IMG/VR virus record: IMGVR_UViG_3300044878_000031
Coordinates: 48,173-112,172 of that record
Direction: 5' to 3' (one strand)
Source of the DNA: a virus
DNA: 64,000 bases
Shown here one piece after another: positions 1 to 54,757 of this stretch (position 1 is its first letter; every line of letters starts with the position of its first letter). The notes beneath the pieces were generated by a model. It saw only the letters and a list, made by a program, of their open reading frames with translations. It had not been told where the DNA came from and did no database searches. Both the position numbers and the translations under genes were made by a program.

Positions 1-26
1 TTAGATCCACTGGATTACGAGTTAGG

Positions 27-121
27 TGATCCTCTCAGCGTTTGTCACGCCAAGTTAAACATGAAGACCGGGAACGGCTATCCGCGAATTCGCAAGCCAA
101 TAGTTCTTCAACGTAAGGATC
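27..121 (-). ncRNA. candidate structured RNA (may extend past window edge)
   Basis: Nested stems GATCCT/AGGATC, TGAAGA/TCTTCA, GAAC/GTTC, GGCT/AGCC and GCGAATTCGC, directly downstream of tRNA-Tyr; no credible ORF. Confidence 0.45.
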
Positions 122-126
122 GTAAA

Positions 127-212
127 TGGTGGGTGAGGTAGGATTCGAACCTACGAAGCCATCGGCGTCAGATTTACAATCTGATAACTTTGAACCACTT
201 GTATACTCACCC
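127..212 (-). tRNA. tRNA-Tyr(GTA)
   Basis: Acceptor GGGTGAG/CTCACCC-A-CCA, anticodon arm TCAGA-TTGTAAA-TCTGA, long variable arm, T arm GTAGG-TTCGAAT-CCTAC. Confidence 0.95.
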
Positions 213-217
213 GGTAA

Positions 218-301
218 AGCTGACAATGTTAGGCATCGAAGCCCTGCTAGTTCCCGGACCGCACTAGCTTTCCATTAACGACGGCTGACGCGTTGTCAGC
301 T
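218..301 (-). ncRNA. candidate structured RNA with T-loop-like hairpin
   Basis: Closing stem AGCTGACAA/TTGTCAGCT, internal GCTAGT/ACTAGC stem and GGGC-TTCGAT-GCCT hairpin. Confidence 0.5.
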
Positions 302-344
302 ATGGCCCTCGCTAATGACTCCCCAGGAGTGCACTGCCACAAAA

Positions 345-483
345 TGGTCCTCCGCTGTCGGATCTACCGACGCGACCGCTTCAACTGACCCCCGGCGTAC
401 GGGACGTTTAGGTTACACTAGAACAACATTCCCACGCAGTAGCGTTCACAATGCGCACTCTAATGGCCTTGGTCTACAGAGGA
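345..483 (-). ncRNA. CCA-ended tRNA-like RNA with large internal domain
   Basis: TCCTCTG/CGGAGGA acceptor-like stem followed by CCA; T-arm-like GTCGG-TAGAT-CCGAC; GACC/GGTC encloses two G-U-containing hairpins. Confidence 0.55.
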
Positions 484-497
484 TGAAACTATGAATT

Positions 498-627
498 TGG
501 CCCCGAGGGGTGGACTCGAACCACCGACCTCCCGCTGGCAAGCGTGTTTAAACGTTCTCGCCACGTTAGTAGCTATCAACGTAACCGCATGTCTAACGAG
601 TGTTCTAACCGACTGAACTACCCAAGG
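498..627 (-). ncRNA. tRNA-like RNA with 60-nt structured anticodon loop
   Basis: D arm GTAGTTCAGTCGGTTAGAA, anticodon stem CTCGT/GCGGG, T arm GGTGG-TTCGAGT-CCACC, G discriminator and CCA; loop 536-595 is 60 nt instead of 7. Confidence 0.75.
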
Positions 628-629
628 GA

Positions 630-875
630 TTGAAAGACTAACCGCTACCCCGACCTACGGAATGCAATACTCACTGTGACCTCTGGAGGAAAAGAAAGAA
701 AACCCCAGAGCAACTCGGTATGCAATCGAGCCATGTAACACATTGAGTCGGGTCACGCTACTCCAACCGCAGAACACCGGAAGTCCGTCAAGTCCCAGTA
801 GATTCCCCTTTCGCCGTGAAGCTAGAGGTCGTGCTGGAATCCCTGCTATCGGTCAGTAACGTGTAGGTCTCTCAA
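630..875 (-). ncRNA. candidate ~245-nt multi-stem RNA
   Basis: Ends pair (TTGAGAG/CTTTCAA and ACTGACCG/CGGTTAGT); internal stems GATTCC/GGAATC, CTCTGG/CCAGAG, CTCGA/CCGAG, CCCGAC/GTCGGG. Confidence 0.55.
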
Positions 876-900
876 TAGATCACTGGAGTATGTAAATTAT
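871..900 (-). promoter_or_regulatory. putative middle-type promoter (ATCTATTGAG motif) for the RNA operon
   Basis: Same 10-mer at 4274-4283 (upstream of phuZ) and 56608-56617 (upstream of uvsX), each with an upstream A/T-rich element. Confidence 0.55.
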
Positions 901-913
901 TACGTAAACTCAG

Positions 914-941
914 GCAAAAAAAAAGGCCCGGTGAAGGGCCC
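914..941 (-). terminator. intrinsic terminator
   Basis: GGGCC/GGCCC-type hairpin followed by T9-GCC on the minus strand, downstream of 957..1370. Confidence 0.65.
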
Positions 942-956
942 CATTGGAAAAGGGTG

Positions 957-1370
957 TTACGGAATCTCTGGGAAGCCCACGATCTTCAGGACTAGGTTAC
1001 GCTTACGGCGATACCAACCAATGGATCTGGTAGGGTAGCCACGTTCCTCACTCTGCTTACGAATGGTCTCGTCATCTTCAAACAGCAGGGGGACTGGGAA
1101 GTATCTCCAGTGTTCTTGACTACCGTGCCTGACTAAGGCGTGGAGTGTACGCTTACTCCAATTGCCGGTGGTAATGCCTTCGATCAATTCTTGTTTGATT
1201 GCTTCGATGCACTCGGCTGCGTTGGAGGCGTTGAATAGATTGTTGTAGTGCGCAACAGTTGTACCTGACTCTTCGTCGTTAGCACGTTTCATGATGTATA
1301 GGACACCACCATTCTCATGCTTGGCAATGTTACCGTTAGCGTAAGTGTGAGTGTGGTATTCGCGGGTCAT
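957..1370 (-). CDS. hypothetical early protein
   Basis: ORF; start moved to MTREY (GAAGG RBS), downstream of a TATATTAC promoter. Confidence 0.75.
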   Translation of the reverse strand: MTREYHTHTYANGNIAKHENGGVLYIMKRANDEESGTTVAHYNNLFNASNAAECIEAIKQELIEGITTGNWSKRTLHALVRHGSQEHWRYFPVPLLFEDDETIRKQSEERGYPTRSIGWYRRKRNLVLKIVGFPEIP

Positions 1371-1426
1371 GGGTAATACCTTCTGAGGCCAATAGATTAG
1401 AGGGAGTTTGTAGCGTGTACACCAAA

Positions 1427-1451
1427 GTAATATATATCTGAAACTTCTTTG
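1427..1451 (-). promoter_or_regulatory. phiKZ-type early (virion RNAP) promoter
   Basis: AAAGAAGTTTCAGATATATATTAC; matches the TATATTAC core and four other copies. Confidence 0.75.
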
Positions 1452-1499
1452 ATTCAACCCCGAATAGAATGAAGGGTTATTTTACTTTGGGGTGTTCTA

Positions 1500-2117
1500 A
1501 TGAACCGTTTGCAGGAACTGGTACAGATCGGGGAACTCGATCTAACCTACAGTCCTGAGGGGCTGGAGATGATGGAGGAGGCTTCTGCTGAAGTCCCTTC
1601 CAAGACGATCTACATATTGCTTACCGATACCAAGACTCTGGTCAGTAAGGTTAGCCGTATGGTTACAGGTGATCCGTACAACCACGTGTCGCTGATGCTG
1701 TCTGATGACTTCGATGATGGTATCTATACCTTCAGTCTGGGGAACGGCGTCAACGGCATTAAGGGTGGCTTCATGGTGGAGGATCGTGCAAACCTGAAAG
1801 GGTCTCACTACTCCATGTACAAGATGGGAGTCACCTCTGACGCGTACGACAAGATCAAGACTCGAATCACTGACTACGTCAAGGGTATCGAGAAAACGTC
1901 ATACAACCATCTGGGGTTGTTTAACGCGATCTTCAAGAAGAACATCTTTAAGACCGAGGATGGCCAAACTTCGATCTGTTCTGAGTTCGTCGTTGAAGTC
2001 CTGAAGTTCTCCGGCGTAGAACTCTTCGCCAAAAGATTCGCCAGCTCTGTAAGACCTTACGAGTTGATCAAATCGAAACTGTTGAAGTTCCACCGTCGTG
2101 GCGTCATAAAACCCTAA
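1500..2117 (+). CDS. permuted papain-like (NlpC/P60, YiiX/YebB-type) enzyme
   Basis: His motif YNHVSL precedes Cys motif ICSEFV; N-terminal GLE is a possible prohead-protease site. Confidence 0.75.
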   Translation: MNRLQELVQIGELDLTYSPEGLEMMEEASAEVPSKTIYILLTDTKTLVSKVSRMVTGDPYNHVSLMLSDDFDDGIYTFSLGNGVNGIKGGFMVEDRANLKGSHYSMYKMGVTSDAYDKIKTRITDYVKGIEKTSYNHLGLFNAIFKKNIFKTEDGQTSICSEFVVEVLKFSGVELFAKRFASSVRPYELIKSKLLKFHRRGVIKP

Positions 2118-2121
2118 GTCT

Positions 2122-2164
2122 AGACCGGCTCACTTAGGTGGGTCGGTTTATGGCGGCATAAAAG
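2122..2164. terminator. bidirectional terminator-like element
   Basis: Hairpin AGACCGGCTCAC/GTGGGTCGGTTT followed by TATGGCG (+), overlapping TTTTATGCCG (-). Confidence 0.65.
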
Positions 2165-2742
2165 CGCGGCTCGAGGGAATCTCGAACCTACTCCAGAACT
2201 TTCACAGCCCGGTAGGGCAGGAGCGTCTGTTTCGCGTTGGAATCCCTGCGGCTTTGCTTTTATGTTTTCTTACTGTCAAACACGTTGGCTTTTTGTGGCT
2301 GTGATCGTCTTCTTTCCAAGGCCTTGGTAAGTGTTGCCTTAGATCCACACTAGCTCAGGTACACCCTTTACGTGCTCCGGCCTCACACTGAGGCTCTATC
2401 AACATTTGAATGCTCGTGAACCTCTAAGCGCTATAAGGTGGCCAAGAGGTATGCTTGCCCGGCCCTTTGCCGAGTGCATTACCACCGTGCCACTTATTGA
2501 TGGGCTTAGAAAGGCGCAAGGCTATTGATTGTGGTTTGCCGGAATCTCTCCCTATGTCGGGTATCAAACTGAACACGAGCAAGTGCGTCAGTCTGAAAAG
2601 TGCGAACACTCTAACCCAACTAGAAATCCCCAACCAAAGCCAGTTCTTCAACTCTTCTGTCACGGTGTGCGCGTTAACCGTTGGACTTTCAGTCATCAGA
2701 TTATACTGGAGGTCTCCTATGACTGGCACGCACCTCGAGCGT
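2165..2742 (-). ncRNA. candidate large (~580 nt) structured RNA
   Basis: Closing stem 2169-76/2733-40, many nested 6-8 bp helices and a possible pseudoknot; followed on - by TTTTATGCCG; strand tentative. Confidence 0.6.
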
Positions 2743-3034
2743 GGGTCAGCGGAATCCCCGCAGCGAGTCTCGGACTCGCAGTACGTAGATGAATGGAACA
2801 GTCCGGCAAGTCGTACCACACGTCCACGGCGCGATCGCGCCAGAGGTCGCTATGAACCAAGCCAGCATCAAACTGACGGGGCAGTAGCCCAATCTGCTCA
2901 GCGGTGACATGGTGTGGATTATGATAACCGCGATAGCTACCATCGTCTTCGACGACTTCGATACCGCGATCTATCAATGCTTGCGCGACTAACGAACCTA
3001 ACCCTAGACAGCCCCCAATGAGGAGAACTCTCAA
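2717..3034 (-). CDS. hypothetical protein with Rossmann-like N-terminus
   Basis: MRVLLIGGCLGLGSLVAQALIDRGIEV resembles a beta1-alpha1-beta2 nucleotide-binding motif; AAGGA RBS; 3' end overlaps the predicted RNA. Confidence 0.55.
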   Translation of the reverse strand: MRVLLIGGCLGLGSLVAQALIDRGIEVVEDDGSYRGYHNPHHVTAEQIGLLPRQFDAGLVHSDLWRDRAVDVWYDLPDCSIHLRTASPRLAAGIPLTHARGACQS

Positions 3035-3047
3035 GTGCAGTCCTTAC

Positions 3048-3242
3048 TCAGCCCAACCCTACTCCTGAAGGGCGGTTCTCGACCATGTGTTTAGCAGGAT
3101 CGTAAACCACCTTCTCGTAGCAGTTGTGCCAAGGCTTTCCTTGACAACACGTACAGTGGAACGGAGCAGCCGCTGGAGAGGTGAGTAACTCAATCACCCC
3201 GCACTTGTCACAGGCGTACTCCAACAGCGCTCCACCACTCAT
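3048..3242 (-). CDS. small Zn-ribbon protein
   Basis: CDKC...CTCC; TAATG-coupled to phuZ. Confidence 0.7.
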   Translation of the reverse strand: MSGGALLEYACDKCGVIELLTSPAAAPFHCTCCQGKPWHNCYEKVVYDPAKHMVENRPSGVGLG

Positions 3243-4216
3243 TACAGCACCAGGCCGTCGTCGGTGACGGTGTCCTTGGCATCGTTGATCAACTTCTGGG
3301 CAGCAGCGCGGCCTTCGCTACGCTGTTCGAAGTCGTTGATGGTCGATTGTAGGCGATCGAAGGTAGCACCCAGGTGTTGGGTGGATACCACGAAGTGCAG
3401 CTCCTGGATGTCTTTCACCGGATGTAGGAAGTAGCCAGTGCAGGAGTATTCCGGCACGGGGGTTTCCAGATGCGGCTGATTACGATCGGCGTACAGCGAG
3501 GCGATCGAGATCGGGTCAGCAATTTCAGACACGTCGCTGGCGCCAGCGAAGATGTCCAGCAGAACCAGTTGAGCTTCTACGCTGGTCGACTTGTTGATGT
3601 TCAGCCAGTTGTAGATGTCCTTGGTGTCCAGCTCGGCGTTCTGACGCGAGGCCAGGTAGCACAGGCAGGAGATTGCGAAGTCCAGTTGGTCGTCGACAAT
3701 CTTGCGAGTAGCTTCGCCGCCGTTGTGACGGTAGAACGCGACCAGCGGTTTGTCGATTTGCTTGGTGATAGCCGACAGGGACTTCACGGTGTTCAGGGTG
3801 TTGCGTGCAGTGATCGCAGCTTCGGACGAACCGGCGGAAACGATAACTACGGAGTGACCACGGTCAGCCAGCTCTTTTGCCAGCAGTGGGCCGATTACCG
3901 AACCCGAACCGCCCGACGCCGAGAAGACGACGATGTTGAAATCTTCAGGAGCCTGCTTGAGCAGGATCTGTTTGATGACTGCGGAGATCTGCGCGTGGTT
4001 CTCTTTACGCACTTTACCGGAGCCGTCGGTTTTCTCGAGGATGAATACGTCTTCTTCCTTGACCGTGTCGGTCAGGTTGGAACGACTGGTGTCCACGAAG
4101 CTTGGGAGCAGATCCGCGAAGCCCGGTGCGGATTGACGATTCAGGTAACGCAGGGCAACGTTCACGCCCAGACCACCACAACCGTACAGACGCACTTTAC
4201 CTTTACCTTGTTCCAT
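3242..4216 (-). CDS. phuZ: PhuZ tubulin-like spindle protein
   Basis: GCGGLG N-terminal motif, GSGKVR, tubulin signature SGGSGS, C-tail ...DDGLVL. Confidence 0.95.
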   Translation of the reverse strand: MEQGKGKVRLYGCGGLGVNVALRYLNRQSAPGFADLLPSFVDTSRSNLTDTVKEEDVFILEKTDGSGKVRKENHAQISAVIKQILLKQAPEDFNIVVFSASGGSGSVIGPLLAKELADRGHSVVIVSAGSSEAAITARNTLNTVKSLSAITKQIDKPLVAFYRHNGGEATRKIVDDQLDFAISCLCYLASRQNAELDTKDIYNWLNINKSTSVEAQLVLLDIFAGASDVSEIADPISIASLYADRNQPHLETPVPEYSCTGYFLHPVKDIQELHFVVSTQHLGATFDRLQSTINDFEQRSEGRAAAQKLINDAKDTVTDDGLVL

Positions 4217-4273
4217 TTTCTACATCCTAGATCAGTTAATTTCGACGGTAGGTTTTACAAGAGTCGCATTACT

Positions 4274-4304
4274 CTCAATAGATACTACCACGGAATCTTT
4301 TTTT
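4274..4304 (-). promoter_or_regulatory. putative promoter of phuZ
   Basis: AAAAAAAGATTCC...ATCTATTGAG. Confidence 0.55.
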
Positions 4305-4369
4305 ACAGATGCTCATAAGTATCGGGTACTTTATGACCGTAGGTCCACATCTATAACCTCGAGGCCTTT

Positions 4370-5185
4370 ATGAATCCTATTCAAAAAGCAATCTCGGACG
4401 TCAAAGCGAGTATCCCTCGGGAGATCCTCGAACGCACGTTCATGAAGCCGGACTCGATTGCCTACGGTACACGCAGCTCTTATAGCCCTACCTCGTTAGA
4501 CTTCCGTATTCGTACGGCGGTGATCGAGGGTAACGTTCTACCTGACTGTAACTTGGTCGGTGGTACTGAGGTGACTATTCCGTTGAGTTCAGTGATCCCA
4601 CAAATGGTTTCTGACTACAACGTGATCTACCGTGTGCCGAAGTCTCTCACCCAGAACCGCAGTATCCTGAGACTGTTACACCTGACCTTCGGTGATGGTG
4701 GTGTGGTCGGTAGTATGAACTTGGCTATCCAAGGTCGCTCTGCCATGATGGATGCTGCTCAGGGCGTTCTACAGGCTCACCTGCCGATTCCTATCGTCTC
4801 CACGGCGAACTTGGAACTGGTAGCAGAAAACACGGTCATGGTGAAAGACAACATTACCATGCCGGGCAACCCGTACTTACGTTGTGTGGTAGAGGGCGAC
4901 ACTGAACTCAACCACTTGCAACCGACTTCGTATAAAGCGTTTTCGAAGTTGGTGGTATTGGCGACTAAGGCGTACATCTTCAACAACATTGCGATCCCGA
5001 TGGACCAAGCAGCACTGTCGGGTGGTATGGCGTTAGGACGTATCCGTGAAATCGTCGATGGCTACTCGGATGCTTACGAGCAGTACGATACCTACTTCGA
5101 GGAAGTTTGGCGTAAGGTGGCGATCTTTAACGATCCAGAAGCCAACAAGCGTCACCTCAAGTTACTTACCGGGGGTCGCTGGTAA
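4370..5185 (+). CDS. conserved phiKZ-like hypothetical protein (likely virion-associated)
   Basis: 271-aa ORF, GAGG RBS, TATG upstream, divergent from phuZ. Confidence 0.75.
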   Translation: MNPIQKAISDVKASIPREILERTFMKPDSIAYGTRSSYSPTSLDFRIRTAVIEGNVLPDCNLVGGTEVTIPLSSVIPQMVSDYNVIYRVPKSLTQNRSILRLLHLTFGDGGVVGSMNLAIQGRSAMMDAAQGVLQAHLPIPIVSTANLELVAENTVMVKDNITMPGNPYLRCVVEGDTELNHLQPTSYKAFSKLVVLATKAYIFNNIAIPMDQAALSGGMALGRIREIVDGYSDAYEQYDTYFEEVWRKVAIFNDPEANKRHLKLLTGGRW

Positions 5186-5925
5186 TGTATCAGGAGGGCT
5201 CGGGTAGTACCTTTACACACAACGGGAAAGAGTATCCGCTCGATCCCTTTCTGAAACGTGCTGCCAAACTTCCAGTGAAGCAGCTTTATATCAGCAAACT
5301 GAAGTGGAACCTTGACGGACTGACGTTAGACCCTGTACGCGTGGCTCAGGCCGACCCTAGCGTGCCGATCTTGTTTACCATGGACCCGAAGTGGGGTTAC
5401 GTGATAATCGACGGTACGCATCGTTTGGCGAAGGCGGTGCAGGAAAAGCGTTATTCCATCCCAGGTCGTGAAATTCCCTACAGTTGGTTTGCTGAAGTTG
5501 GAACTGTCTCTATGGAAGATGATTCGAACCCTACCTACACCGTGGGCAAAGTTACTCGTGAGCAGGCTTTCGAGTGGTTGTCACAATACGATCAACGTCG
5601 TCCTGAGTTCCCAGTACAACCGGGTTCTGTGGACGGTGAAGAGCGTGTGTACGCTTTCGCTTGGCACGGGGACGAGATCGTAGGCTACGCTTGCCTGTTA
5701 AACGGACAGCGTTACCTGATCGACATGTTCGTGCCTGAGTCGGGACGTGGCAAAGGTGTAGGACGTCAGTTAGTAGATTCTTTGCTGGTTGACCTAGTGG
5801 TTGTGAAGAAGTACCAGACAGACATCATTGCTTTCCTGAAGGCTGTGGGGTTTACGCTGGAGAACGACTTCGTGAACACTAAGATCTATCGGAAGTACCA
5901 CGGACCTAAGGTCCACGCTTACTGA
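5185..5925 (+). CDS. ParB/Srx-like domain fused to GNAT acetyltransferase
   Basis: IIDGTHRL motif; acetyl-CoA motif MFVPESGRGKGVGRQL and F..A.GF; linker contains SME. Confidence 0.7.
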   Translation: MYQEGSGSTFTHNGKEYPLDPFLKRAAKLPVKQLYISKLKWNLDGLTLDPVRVAQADPSVPILFTMDPKWGYVIIDGTHRLAKAVQEKRYSIPGREIPYSWFAEVGTVSMEDDSNPTYTVGKVTREQAFEWLSQYDQRRPEFPVQPGSVDGEERVYAFAWHGDEIVGYACLLNGQRYLIDMFVPESGRGKGVGRQLVDSLLVDLVVVKKYQTDIIAFLKAVGFTLENDFVNTKIYRKYHGPKVHAY

Positions 5926-5962
5926 CGGCATAGAGGCTCCCGTGTGGGAGCCTCGTTATGCG
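5926..5962. terminator. bidirectional hairpin/TATGCCG element
   Basis: CGGCATA-GAGGCTCCC/GGGAGCCTC-GTTATGCG between convergent genes. Confidence 0.75.
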
Positions 5963-5963
5963 C

Positions 5964-6305
5964 TTAGCGACGGTAGTGTCGGCTGAAGTTGAAGTACGGG
6001 GAGTCCTTCAGTTGAATCACTTCATGGCCAGCAGCAGCAAAGGTAAAACGCCCTACGCTGGAGGACAGGACAATCGCAGACTTATCGCGGGGTTCAATGT
6101 TCCACGAAACCTTACGCACTTTGTCTTCGTAGCTAGGTGCTAGCGCTTCCCAGTGCTTACGAGCGTACTCCATGATGTTGCCAACCATCCGAGTCTTGAT
6201 CGGGTCTAGCAGACTGACTTGTTCCAGATCACGGGTTTCACAACGACCTATGCGTCCTGTCAAGTCTTCGATCAATTCCTGAAAGCGTTTTTGGTGATGA
6301 GACAT
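5964..6305 (-). CDS. hypothetical protein
   Basis: 113-aa ORF downstream of a GATATTAC promoter variant (6367-6374). Confidence 0.7.
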   Translation of the reverse strand: MSHHQKRFQELIEDLTGRIGRCETRDLEQVSLLDPIKTRMVGNIMEYARKHWEALAPSYEDKVRKVSWNIEPRDKSAIVLSSSVGRFTFAAAGHEVIQLKDSPYFNFSRHYRR

Positions 6306-7724: not shown

Positions 7725-8366
7725 TCAAACGCGTTGGCGTAGGATAGCTTTGCCGCGAGTAACTTGAATGAAGATGCCACGTTTACGGGAGTCAGGGTTT
7801 TCACCTTGATCGTCCAGCGTGACAGTCATCCCAGCTTCTTCACAGCGTTTCACGTTTACGGTGTTCAGCAAACCGTCACGTTGAATCAGACACTTGTGAA
7901 TCCGCTCACCCAGGAGTTTGAGTTCCCGGAGTTGCGGTTGAACATCTTGCGGGTAACCTTCCAGCAACACCACATGCTCATAGAAGATTGCGAAGTGGCG
8001 AATCATATCGCCTACCGGATCTTCAATAGTGGTGACTGGTTCGGACAGTGCCTCGTCTTCAAGGGGTGGGTTCCAGCGAGTGCGCAGTTCGTCAATCGCT
8101 TCCTGTGTCTTCTCAACGCCGTAACGTTCGGTCATGATATTGGCCAGCCCTGACATGATGCTGTCGCGAGTGAAGGTAATATCTGGGTTCTTCTCGAGGA
8201 ACGACTCGAGGAACGATTTACCGGGTACATAGGTTTCGTCAGACATGGTAATTCCTTTTGGGGGCTCTTCACCAGTATAGTGAGGAACCAACATGTGGGG
8301 AGTGTCCATGATGCAGGAGAAGTCACAGGAGATTTCGTCTTCGGAGACAGTAGTAGATTGGTTCAT
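7725..8366 (-). CDS. hypothetical early protein
   Basis: Last ORF of early operon; terminator at 7681-7716. Confidence 0.75.
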   Translation of the reverse strand: MNQSTTVSEDEISCDFSCIMDTPHMLVPHYTGEEPPKGITMSDETYVPGKSFLESFLEKNPDITFTRDSIMSGLANIMTERYGVEKTQEAIDELRTRWNPPLEDEALSEPVTTIEDPVGDMIRHFAIFYEHVVLLEGYPQDVQPQLRELKLLGERIHKCLIQRDGLLNTVNVKRCEEAGMTVTLDDQGENPDSRKRGIFIQVTRGKAILRQRV

Positions 8367-10203: not shown

Positions 10204-10270
10204 GATGAACAAGATTTTGTATCCTATTCACCAGAGTAATATAGACTTGAGATTTTTTTATTTCGACTTT
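10204..10270 (-). repeat. early promoter + 5' leader hairpin cassette, copy 1
   Basis: 60/67 identical to 54653-54719; contains TATATTAC. Confidence 0.85.
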
Positions 10271-10318
10271 TATGCCCTACGTATTTTGTGACTATAGTTT
10301 CTCCTGAGGAATGGCGAC

Positions 10319-11947: not shown

Positions 11948-14161
11948 TTAGGCAGCCATGCGAACACCACCCCACGGATTGTTAGCCGCAGGACGTTGTT
12001 TGTTCCCCCACGAAATCCCTTTCGAGAAGAAGTCGTTCTGTTGCACACGGGCTTGCTTGTTGTTCCGCACCAGACGTTCATCCGAGGCACGCTTGATCAA
12101 GGCGTTCATGTTGTTCACCTCCTCAGTGTCCTCTTTGATACGGCTAGCCAAGAAGCGCAGACGTGCTTCAGTCCGGGTAACTTGGAAGGTATCCGAAGCT
12201 TCAGCCAACACAGCGTACAGTCCATCCATTTCCGTACGGTAGTCTTTCTGCACCCGCTTCTCGTGGATCTCTTCCAACGTGAGAGGTTTACTGTTATCGC
12301 TAACAGCCGACATCACAATGCTAGCGTCAATCCCGTACCAGTCAAGGTTCGTCCCCATCATCAACATCCAGTTAGCCAACAGCCACGCAACTACCGTGTC
12401 GTCGTGTCCTGAAGCATCGTGGTCGATACGTCCTCGCTTCACCACTAGGGCGCGAATCTCTGCGGAGAGTACCTTGTCTCTGACGAGGTGTCCGGCTTTC
12501 TTCGCCGATTGTTGCAACACAGTCGAGTACAGGGAGTTCCGTGCTTCCGCCGTGGTGTTGAACCCGAAGTACTTCTTCGTGCTGTCGTAGAACCCAGGAG
12601 AACGAGCACCGTGTGGACGTTGCAGTTCTTTGAACAGGTCTTGACGATCGGAAGCTTCGTCGACGATACGGTTGAAGATACGACGGAATGGATCGATGCC
12701 GTGTTTCGGCAGAGTCAGGAGCAGGGAGTCTACGATCATTTGACCGGTGGACTTCTTCTCTGGAATCAGCGTCATGTTCGGGTACTTCACCATCAGTTCG
12801 GCCAAAGCGTTCGAGAACCGGATCAAGTTGGTTTCGTTCACAGTGAAAGCACCGACTACCGACAGATCCTTCGCACTGATGATTACACCCGCGATGGCAT
12901 CTCGACCGATTGCTTCCGAGGTATCCAACCCCAGGATGAAACTGTCGTTGCGTTTGGCAGCAGCAAGTTCCACTTCGTCCAAGTACCAACGGATGATGTA
13001 CAGCTCTTTGGTGATCTCGGTGTGTTTGATCTCGACCACAGAATCGCGAATCTTTTCGTTGAGTGCGGGAGACAGTGGGGAACTCTGCGTACCCGATGTC
13101 CACACGTTGAAGAAGTCTCGGTCTGCTGCGTCGCCGAAGGAACTGGCCTGAGACATTGCCTCGTACAGCCATTCATCGGTGTAGCCCAATTGACGGTGAC
13201 TGAAGGTGGCGTTGATAATCAACTTACGTCCAGCGCAGTTCTTACGAACCATTTCCACCAGAGCATCACGGTCAACACAATCGTAGAACAGTTCAGTCCA
13301 CGTTGCACCACCATGAATCATGTCGTACATGAAGCGACCGTCACGGTCGTCTTTCTTACCAGCCGTTGTAGTAAAGATGTTGCCGTGTGGACGGCCGTGC
13401 ATCTTCGCTTCAGCACGAGCGGTAGTAGCAGCAGCCAGGGCCGCAGGCAGAGTAGTACCGATGTGGTTAATGAAGGGACCTTCGTCGATGTGCGCAATAG
13501 GTGCGGTAAGTCCCCGACCCAAGTTGTTCGCAGTAGACTCAGAGTTCTGAGAAACGCCAGTGGTGTAGTAGTTCTCGTGGTGCTTACAGGTAACTTCGAA
13601 TTGGTTGTCCGAGTCGTCACGGCTCCGAGGTACAATGTAGCCCGGCAGCAAGTCACGCAGCTTCTTGATACGCTCAACGTTCTTCTTACGGAGGGTATCG
13701 TCCTTTGTGATCATGTTGATGATGGAGTTACCAGCACCGATGAACAGCAGCCACAGCATGATACAGTCAGTAGACACCGACTTACCCGTCTGACGTGGTT
13801 GGATCAACGCAATGTCGATACTGTTCAGGAACGCCCAGGTAATCGCAATGTTACCCCGGTTGGCAATGTAGGAGATTGGGTTCGGACCAGCAACAGGAGG
13901 AATCCGAACAACCTCACGCAAGAAGTACCAAACGTTCCAGCGGCACTCCAGACCGATAGCGATCTTGGTGGCTTCAGAAAGAATCTCGCAGTGAGGGTCA
14001 ACACCCTTTAGGTCTTGGTTAATCAAGGCTAAAGGAAAATATCGGTTCTTAACCCCCATCTCTCCATAGAGCGAGACGAGGCGTAGAAACGATTCATTCT
14101 TCGTATCGAAGTCAGGCCTTGCAGTAAAGGCCCTCGTCCAATCATTGGCGAATAGAATCAT
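11948..14161 (-). CDS. terL: terminase large subunit
   Basis: Walker A QPRQTGKS, Walker B HIDEG, nuclease LGLDTSE and GHDD; start moved to MILFANDW (AGGA RBS). Confidence 0.95.
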   Translation of the reverse strand: MILFANDWTRAFTARPDFDTKNESFLRLVSLYGEMGVKNRYFPLALINQDLKGVDPHCEILSEATKIAIGLECRWNVWYFLREVVRIPPVAGPNPISYIANRGNIAITWAFLNSIDIALIQPRQTGKSVSTDCIMLWLLFIGAGNSIINMITKDDTLRKKNVERIKKLRDLLPGYIVPRSRDDSDNQFEVTCKHHENYYTTGVSQNSESTANNLGRGLTAPIAHIDEGPFINHIGTTLPAALAAATTARAEAKMHGRPHGNIFTTTAGKKDDRDGRFMYDMIHGGATWTELFYDCVDRDALVEMVRKNCAGRKLIINATFSHRQLGYTDEWLYEAMSQASSFGDAADRDFFNVWTSGTQSSPLSPALNEKIRDSVVEIKHTEITKELYIIRWYLDEVELAAAKRNDSFILGLDTSEAIGRDAIAGVIISAKDLSVVGAFTVNETNLIRFSNALAELMVKYPNMTLIPEKKSTGQMIVDSLLLTLPKHGIDPFRRIFNRIVDEASDRQDLFKELQRPHGARSPGFYDSTKKYFGFNTTAEARNSLYSTVLQQSAKKAGHLVRDKVLSAEIRALVVKRGRIDHDASGHDDTVVAWLLANWMLMMGTNLDWYGIDASIVMSAVSDNSKPLTLEEIHEKRVQKDYRTEMDGLYAVLAEASDTFQVTRTEARLRFLASRIKEDTEEVNNMNALIKRASDERLVRNNKQARVQQNDFFSKGISWGNKQRPAANNPWGGVRMAA

Positions 14162-22540: not shown

Positions 22541-22574
22541 AGGACGGGGGCCTTCGGGCTCCCGTTTTATGCCG
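22541..22574 (+). terminator. terminator with cUUCGg loop and TTTTATGCCG tail
   Basis: ACGGGGGCC-TTCG-GGCTCCCGT-TTTATGCCG. Confidence 0.85.
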
Positions 22575-23883: not shown

Positions 23884-23934
23884 CGGCATAAAAGCAAAAA
23901 AAAGAGGGGGCCCGAAAGCCCTCTCTTTATGCCG
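23884..23934. terminator. bidirectional hairpin/TATGCCG element
   Basis: CGGCATAAAA...AAAGAGGGGGC/GCCCTCTCTTT-ATGCCG. Confidence 0.75.
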
Positions 23935-24694: not shown

Positions 24695-24762
24695 ACCTGA
24701 TCCCAAAAAAAAAGTGTCAGCATAAAAGCGGTAGGGTGTTACCCCTACCGCTCAGTTACTAC

Positions 24763-26723: not shown

Positions 26724-26792
26724 AACACGATTCGTTTTAAGCGGCATAAAAGCCCCTAGGGATACACACCCTAGGGGTCTTATGCGATCACG

Positions 26793-50384: not shown

Positions 50385-50419
50385 GGCATAGGGGAGGGCG
50401 AACCCTCCCTTTTATGCCG
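50385..50419. terminator. bidirectional hairpin/TATGCCG element
   Basis: GGGCATA-GGGGAGGG/CCCTCCCT-TTTATGCCG. Confidence 0.75.
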
Positions 50420-54719: not shown

Positions 54720-54757
54720 GCGGCATAAAAGCCTAGGGGACCGAAATCCCCTAGGAC

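Follow-up and report, generated by a model that had tools for sequence, protein, structure and literature searches.

The stretch of DNA analysed here, referred to as the window, covers 64,000 nucleotides (nt), namely bases 48173-112172 of a 112-kb virus record of IMG/VR with a completeness of around 41%. Its source is an uncultured nucleus-forming (chimalli-type) jumbo phage, whose nuclear-shell protein and split RNA polymerase subunits are encoded just beyond the window edge. At the end of the phuZ operon the window holds a long stretch, poor in open reading frames (ORFs) and strongly base-paired, which an earlier note on this DNA had read as a large structured RNA and possibly as a new class of large non-coding RNA other than ROOL and GOLLD. 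Both proposals are supported: compensatory changes are found in homologs, coding support is absent, the phage's terminator lies at the 3' end and a scan of Rfam 15 gave no relevant match at E<=10. The locus, in the order in which the minus strand is read, is organized as follows:

3242-4216, minus: phuZ, coding for PhuZ (top GenBank match in Xanthomonas phage LucasX, 46% identity)
3048-3242, minus: zinc-ribbon ORF of 64 amino acids (aa)
2717-3034, minus: ORF of 105 aa
2157-2716, minus: whole candidate RNA, about 560 nt, starting just past the 105-aa gene's stop codon and ending at the U-run in the terminator tail, with full-length homology in seven other contigs, covariation and no Rfam family
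1500-2117, plus: convergent gene of 205 aa, next to which lies a gene of 166 aa
from about 900 downwards: island of tRNAs and tRNA-like RNAs, past the 166-aa gene

Positions 2157-2716 of the minus strand very probably encode a discrete and highly structured non-coding RNA, about 560 nt long, that falls outside every catalogued family. The sense strand of the RNA is the minus strand. Indeed, when compared with shuffled sequences, the minimum free energy (MFE) z-score is -2.61 for the minus strand versus -0.07 for the plus strand, and among the 536 alignment cells that make up the 67 supported base pairs described below, 530 pair when read as minus versus 461 when read as plus. Since 72 of the cells are G-U pairs, which mispair on the other strand, the fold is strand-specific.

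As for family membership, the 4227 models of Rfam 15, which include ROOL, GOLLD, OLE, RNase P, tmRNA and group I/II introns, were scanned with permissive filters, and no match at E<=10 was obtained for the window copy (2130-2760) or for a divergent copy in another contig, L029. Scanning the copy of a closer contig, G001, returned two matches only, both eukaryotic and at chance level, and the GOLLD, ROOL and OLE models were unmatched at E<=10 on all three copies. Similarly, cmscan found no RNase P RNA, tmRNA, group I/II intron or known self-cleaving ribozyme at E<=10, and ARAGORN reported no tmRNA in positions 1-6000. Searches of the GenBank phages by blastn, in near and distant modes, gave no match to the RNA, and none was given by tblastn with its pseudo-ORF.

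Homologs and distribution

Copies of the RNA are present at the same locus in seven other uncultured chimallivirus contigs, which together with the window copy make eight members in two subclades, all of them placed between the small ORFs that follow phuZ and the convergent gene. The first homolog, 78% identical and in the same position, came from BLAST within a related IMG/VR contig that had been reached via PhuZ, and exact-motif scans added four others, three from IMG/VR and, within the metagenome collection, the GenBank contig RCUJ01000104.1. A search with a PhuZ profile gave 19 phuZ loci, which were then screened with a covariance model of the 5' core; the two divergent copies, L029 and L028, scored 100.8 and 96.1 bits, versus around 204 bits for the close copies.

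Xanthomonas phages LucasX and RTH11, the closest relatives in culture, gave no match when their whole genomes were searched by BLAST and with three covariance models, and no covariance-model match was found in 13 more distant phuZ loci or in three complete IMG/VR chimallivirus genomes. As far as the search tools reach, the detected range is limited to phages with a PhuZ that shares about 63% identity or more with that of the window, and the word class is accordingly to be taken narrowly, as an RNA family detected only in one chimallivirus clade. Other candidates were discarded. In particular, an 18-nt invariant motif had 21 matches in bacterial genomes, which is chance level, and both locus L052, the only match with a weak covariance-model score, and the viral contig L044 turned out on reading to be AT-rich coding sequence.

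More members of the family, miscalled as proteins (P0003-P0008 among them), were retrieved by a protein-database search with the translated internal frame of the RNA. They include two compost-metagenome entries, several Logan assemblies, in which one variant occurs on 78 contigs (the longest of 241 kb), and one sequence on a 263-nt contig of a Klebsiella pneumoniae assembly, probably due to contamination or phage carry-over. The hypothetical proteins MNY58489.1 and MNL46351.1, both of compost origin, and WP_227644228.1, from the Klebsiella assembly (the three being P0001, P0004 and P0006), are probably spurious gene calls that translate the frame of the RNA. A 1477-aa apparent homolog, P0009, was a repeat-protein artefact.

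Conservation of the fold

An alignment of the eight sequences (A9) was screened for stacks kept in at least seven of the eight, which were ranked by covariation, and the combined model was then scored. The resulting 11 helices comprise 67 pairs, of which 98.9% of cells are paired, versus 91.9% in shuffles and 35-49% with slid partners. The earlier note had named covariation in homologs as a check, and its outcome is favourable: 19 of the 67 pairs have changes on both sides, versus 8.3±2.0 in shuffles (none of 500 reaches this number) and 2-4 when partners are slid. As judged from the alignment, the fold is conserved through compensatory change, and the slid control together with the detail of single helices is sounder evidence for this than the headline statistics. 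The fold is organized in four parts, i.e. a core of around 370 nt, a three-way-junction domain A with a pseudoknot to the strand past domain B, a variable periphery and a 3' module of around 108 nt. Its elements are:

2664-2684, minus: 5' hairpin (ACGG...CCGU), loop ACGCGCA invariant in the eight sequences
2277-2647, minus: core, about 370 nt, closed by the long-range helix P2 (about 2637-2647 with about 2277-2291), kept in 8/8
2541-2630, minus: domain A, three-way junction, 100% of cells paired, eight pairs with double-sided changes
2622-2630/2541-2549 (Pa), 2615-2620/2556-2561 (Pb), 2598-2611 (Pc, UUCG hairpin) and 2588-2595/2565-2572 (Pd), minus: helices of domain A
2412-2580, minus: pseudoknot between the Pd loop GCUCGUG (2574-2580) and CACGAGC (2412-2418) downstream of domain B, seven pairs in 8/8
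2514-2544, minus: linker UUCCGGCAAACNACAAUCA...CCUUGCGC between domains A and B, nearly invariant in all eight members including the divergent pair
2422-2513, minus: domain B, long bent hairpin with base 2503-2510/2423-2429 and inner stems 2480-2483/2448-2451 and 2470-2474/2458-2462
2380-2394, minus: hairpin GCCUC-AGUGU-GAGGC, two pairs with double changes
2292-2379, minus: variable periphery, small hairpins inserted or deleted in the alignments
2157-2264, minus: 3' module, about 108 nt, closed by the A-tract/U-tract helix CAUAAAAG/CUUUUAUG, its inner stem GCCGCAGGGA/UCCCUCGAGC invariant and its tip variable

The closing helix P2 is maintained with differing sequences, being formed by 11 perfect pairs in three genomes and by GAUGUGGUUC/GAGCU-U-ACGUC in L028 and L029; the 11-base-pair form AGAACUGGCUU/AAGCCAGUUCU and the GCUCGUG/CACGAGC pairing were both verified in G001, G002 and G004. 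In domain A, the stem under the UUCG tetraloop of Pc carries compensatory changes, and the pseudoknot, which crosses Pa, Pb and Pd, varies at its last pair between G-C, U-G and C-G. Four pairs in the inner stems of domain B have double changes. As the model R1, built on near-identical sequences, failed to align domain B of L029, this domain was compared through independent MFE folds of both subclades, which yield the same long hairpin at around 40% sequence identity. In the 3' module, the closing helix becomes CAUAGAAG/CUUCUAUG in G001 and G003, two non-sister genomes, which is again a compensatory change. The invariant loop ACGCGCA of the 5' hairpin could form a tertiary pairing with a complementary stretch, the invariant UGCGC at 2515-2519. 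A tRNA- or tmRNA-like reading of the 3' module was rejected, as GGUUCGAGAUUCC forms no T arm and lacks conservation in G001 and L028. As a side observation, the conserved loops contain the palindromes GCGC and CUCGAG, which would be suggestive at most of an RNA-only homo-oligomeric assembly.

Compared with this model, the structure drawn in the earlier note is 79.9% paired on the same alignment and about half of its helices hold. The small helix 2380-85/2389-94 was confirmed (95.8% paired, two pairs with double changes), and 2411-18/2574-81 is real as well, with seven of its eight pairs present in all eight sequences and one changing from G-C to U-G to C-G; it forms a pseudoknot against domain A, not the simple nest that had been drawn. 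Helix 2423-29/2504-10 is kept in the six close relatives, the divergent pair having an analogous CUUUC/GAAAG stem in its place. The proposed closing helix of the whole element, 2169-76/2733-40, is 93.8% paired; on the other hand, it shows no covariation, has an uncompensated A-to-U mismatch in four of the eight sequences and places its 5' arm inside the end of a real gene. Hairpin 2690-96/2719-25 is weak (70.8% paired), the pseudoknot proposed between its loop and 2191-96 (2706-11/2191-96; 62-75%) is weak and unsupported, and helix 2202-09/2297-2304 (58.6%) is not conserved.

At the level of nucleotides, the core is 87-97% identical to that of G001, versus mostly 50-85% for the flanking genes. 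Relative to L029, the RNA is 59% identical overall, with 73% in domain A and around 40% in domain B, and the helices are kept. Within the close clade the character states are mosaic, and types of the 3' module are swapped across the phylogeny: there are two such types, one of them present in G001 and L028 and the other in their sisters. The two versions of the module tip, GGGAUUCC...GAGAUUCCCUCGAGC and GGGACUCUUCAGG...CCUAAGNGG..CCUCGAGC (window 2157-2264; L002 about 7975-8084; L028 about 11950-12034), are unrelated in sequence. That tip versions are common across the subclades and not within them suggests an exchange of modules by recombination. The extreme identity of the close clade probably results from constraint together with recombination among co-circulating phages, and it is the conservation of the fold that provides the lasting evidence for function.

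The compensated stems also bear on the idea that the stretch works as DNA, as a replication origin or as a packaging or partition site used with PhuZ. Many of their pairs are G-U and thus mismatched on the other strand, so that only one strand folds; in addition, the element has a UUCG tetraloop, is devoid of iterons and repeat arrays and is flanked by transcription signals on both sides. The vicinity of phuZ and the high nucleotide identity within the close clade, which speak for a DNA element, leave this explanation scarcely credible next to a folded RNA.

RNA ends and transcription signals

Three features lie at the borders of the RNA:

2154-2188, minus: terminator-like hairpin GGUUCGAG-AUUCC-CUCGAGCC (2188-2168) and conserved tail CUUUUAUGCCG (2164-2154)
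2700-2729, minus: sigma-70-like box GTGCCA-18-TATAAT, in the AT-rich stretch just 5' of the conserved RNA, partly conserved
2727-2743, minus: hairpin CACGC-UCGAGGU-GCGUG, located in the final codons of the 105-aa gene, with one compensatory pair (C-G/U-A)

The 105-aa ORF (2717-3034, minus) shares 45% protein identity with its counterpart in L029 (E 7e-27) and is a real, fast-evolving gene without a Pfam or PHROG family. The overlap between this ORF and the RNA, about which the earlier note had warned, is genuine, and because the ORF is a real gene the RNA proper starts at or after 2716, past the stop codon 2717-2719, and not at 2742. The hairpin 2727-2743 is probably outside the RNA proper. 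Relative to G001, the DNA of the same gene is 32-47% identical and BLASTP aligns a 31-residue stretch only, despite the 45% identity to the more distant L029. In the same surroundings, the word GC(A/G)GGGATTCC is found on the minus strand at 836-846, where the RNA island starts, at 2239-2249 in the 3' module and at 2751-2761, just upstream of the RNA; as a repeated motif, GCRGGGAUUCC has four matches versus 1.35 expected, which is not significant.

At the 3' end of the RNA, the arrangement of an intrinsic terminator is present, i.e. a GC-rich hairpin and then a U-run in the tail CUUUUAUGCCG. The end signal that had been pointed out here, TTTTATGCCG, proved to be a genome-wide one. In particular, the tail 11-mer CTTTTATGCCG occurs 10 times in the window with at most one mismatch, versus 1.3 expected, at sites that include 2154-2164, 10267-10277, 22564-22574, 23884-23894, 24718-24728, 26742-26752, 50409-50419 and 54721-54731. 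Most copies of CUUUUAUGCCG lie directly after a GC-rich hairpin, usually past a stop codon; in many cases CGGCAUAAAAG, its complement, lies opposite, and in convergent gene pairs the complement CGGCATAAAAG is found on the other flank. The hairpin and CUUUUAUGCCG look like the phage's own terminator tail or punctuation. The 11-mer contains TATG, the late-promoter core of phiKZ-type phages, and the tail may double as a restart site or promoter.

On the 5' side, the sigma-70-like box, which varies in the alignment among TATAAT, TATATT, TATCA and GATTAT, is a possible promoter of the RNA itself; another candidate promoter word, TACTCCAGTGA, showed no enrichment. The RNA would arise as the 3' end of the transcript of the phuZ operon or else be transcribed from this AT-rich promoter-like box at around 2700.

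A rival reading takes the whole stretch for a purely cis-acting 3' untranslated region or elaborate terminator of the phuZ operon, devoid of any role in trans, whose task would be to stabilise the mRNA or to punctuate transcription between convergent genes. Such a role would agree with the location of the RNA directly past the last operon gene, with its end in a hairpin and CUUUUAUGCCG that face the convergent gene, with the A-tract/U-tract helix that closes the 3' module as in bidirectional terminators, and with the fact that the RNA's own promoter box is only semi-conserved. However, the other transcript ends of the window manage with a hairpin of 20-30 nt, and a 370-nt core that maintains a pseudoknot, a three-way junction and invariant unpaired linkers over two subclades exceeds the needs of a stabiliser. 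An exclusively cis-acting element is therefore unlikely, and a discrete RNA is preferred.

The internal open frame

One feature inside the fold could in principle be translated:

2427-2663, minus: 79-codon open frame with a GTG start, contained in the fold and judged non-coding

The frame (VTEELKNWLWLG...) stays open over 72-81 codons in each of the eight members, the divergent pair among them, so that a dual-function RNA that is also translated into a small hydrophobic peptide has to be considered; the N-terminal half of the translation is indeed hydrophobic, and L029 and L028 differ by five synonymous and one non-synonymous change, among just six differences. Nevertheless, antisense frames of 72-106 codons are equally open, so that long open frames are a property of the sequence of this RNA. 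Among the six close members, the variable sites peak at codon position 2 (17 sites), followed by positions 1 (10) and 3 (7), and the ratio of non-synonymous to synonymous changes (pN/pS), 0.65-0.78 between the subclades and 1.1-1.9 within the close clade, is not below that of the two off-frames. The stops differ among members (73, 75, 79, 72 and 81 codons), and the two subclades have unrelated C-terminal thirds. Moreover, the 20 nt before the GTG (…acgcgcacacc) contain no Shine-Dalgarno or purine-rich motif, the GTG itself sits in a helix, and the V-to-E changes in the supposed membrane segment coincide exactly with one half of fully compensated stem changes. By these comparisons the frame has no coding signature and protein coding is not supported, which makes a peptide-encoding second function very improbable.

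The neighbouring RNA island

The nearest tRNA-type gene ends at 627, around 1.5 kb from the RNA, and two protein genes lie between. At gathering thresholds, Rfam 15 recognizes two tRNAs and nothing else in the whole window, and ARAGORN calls a single tRNA-Tyr in positions 1-6000. Positions 501-627 (minus) hold a tRNA-shaped gene in which a 60-nt insert replaces the anticodon loop; it scores 35.9 bits with the Rfam tRNA model and is not called by ARAGORN. The genes in the neighbourhood of the large RNA include none that indicates a partner protein for it.

At a distance of 1-2 kb from the RNA, the phage carries a densely packed island of tRNAs and tRNA-like RNAs that must be processed, and this raises the question whether the RNA is catalytic or mobile, for example a ribozyme so far unrecognised that would process the island, or a degenerate intron. 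The invariant joining region, the pseudoknot and the closed core of RNase-P-like size would be compatible with catalysis, and the mosaic distribution hints at horizontal exchange. No ribozyme or intron model was matched at E<=10, though, and an intron would further be at odds with the surroundings, where no split host gene flanks the RNA (the ORF upstream has a normal end, and the gene downstream is in convergent orientation) and no homing-endonuclease gene is present. A hammerhead-like CUGAUGA...GAAA is limited to the window copy. Catalysis or mobility is hence improbable as an account of this RNA.

Possible function of the RNA

The most likely role, though held tentatively and at less than an even chance, would be action in trans, either as a scaffold or decoy for a protein or as a self-assembling ornate RNA of the GOLLD/ROOL sort. 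The invariant unpaired stretches UUCCGGCAAACNACAAUCA, CCUUGCGC and ACGCGCA might then serve as contact sites. Searches for a partner by base pairing gave chance-level 11-13-mers only in the 112-kb record, folding of the whole RNA with duplexfold was uninformative, and a comparison of the conserved single-stranded segments with 109 gene leaders produced no outlier, the leader of chimallin, the nuclear-shell protein, ranking from 4th to 95th.

Several points weigh against a discrete, trans-acting RNA. No partner protein, target or ligand was found, and the 112-kb record, itself complete to around 41%, contains no antisense target of at least 14 nt. The ends, abundance and stability of the RNA are predictions from sequence, and the comparison draws on just eight sequences in two subclades. 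Relative to L029, the RNA is conserved no better than phuZ (66%), and the high identity within the close clade may in part reflect recombination and not purifying selection alone. Furthermore, the helices were selected on the same alignment on which they were scored, which renders the pairing statistics (98.9% of cells, 19 of 67 pairs) somewhat optimistic, an effect that the slid-partner control limits and does not remove.

Wider pattern and significance

Structured RNAs rarely exceed 500 nt, and those that are well understood, such as the ones of the ribosome, RNase P and self-splicing introns, for the most part perform fundamental chemistry; GOLLD, ROOL and OLE are still functional puzzles. 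Nucleus-forming jumbo phages are intensively studied for their eukaryote-like cell biology, and the searchable literature turned up no such RNA for them. The window provides a well-supported new RNA family in nucleus-forming jumbo phages, and its constant location behind phuZ may hint at an RNA-based level of phage biology in this group. On the practical side, public databases annotate pieces of this RNA as hypothetical proteins.

The position itself recurs. By a crude check, three of the 13 more distant phuZ loci have directly after phuZ a stretch of 490-860 nt without an ORF of at least 90 aa (L030 10964-11824, L033 10967-11485 and L042 10961-11446), with folding z-scores of -3.6 to -5.9 against mononucleotide shuffles. 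None of the three was matched by the three covariance models of the window RNA, and what recurs is the position, homology to the window RNA not being implied. It is conceivable, if rather doubtful, that the window RNA is one lineage's version of a general chimalliphage feature, namely a large structured RNA after phuZ that has diverged beyond sequence recognition and that would serve the programme of the phage nucleus and spindle, for instance as an RNA-protein particle or a self-assembling RNA.

Comparison with known systems

The closest likeness is to GOLLD and ROOL, large ornate RNAs that are Rfam families (PMC5737381) and that have been studied by cryo-EM (PMC12286853). GOLLD and ROOL often lie near tRNA genes. 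The window RNA shares with them the size class of around 550-800 nt, the carriage by phages or prophages and a complex fold of several domains with long-range helices and pseudoknots, as well as the lack of an associated protein or known function. In contrast, it matches neither model in sequence or structure at E<=10, its host is a nucleus-forming jumbo phage from a compost-type habitat and not from Lactobacillales or rumen, and it lies after phuZ, with two protein genes separating it from the tRNA island.

A second comparison is offered by the stable RNAs species 1 and 2 of phage T4, which are phage-encoded, have an unknown function, lie together with the phage tRNA genes in a tRNA cluster and, at around 120-140 nt, are processed from a tRNA precursor. 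The window RNA, likewise encoded by a phage, is four times their size and has its place beyond the tRNA island. The RNA at the end of the phuZ operon is a new family of a general kind that is already known, that of the large phage-borne RNAs such as GOLLD and ROOL.

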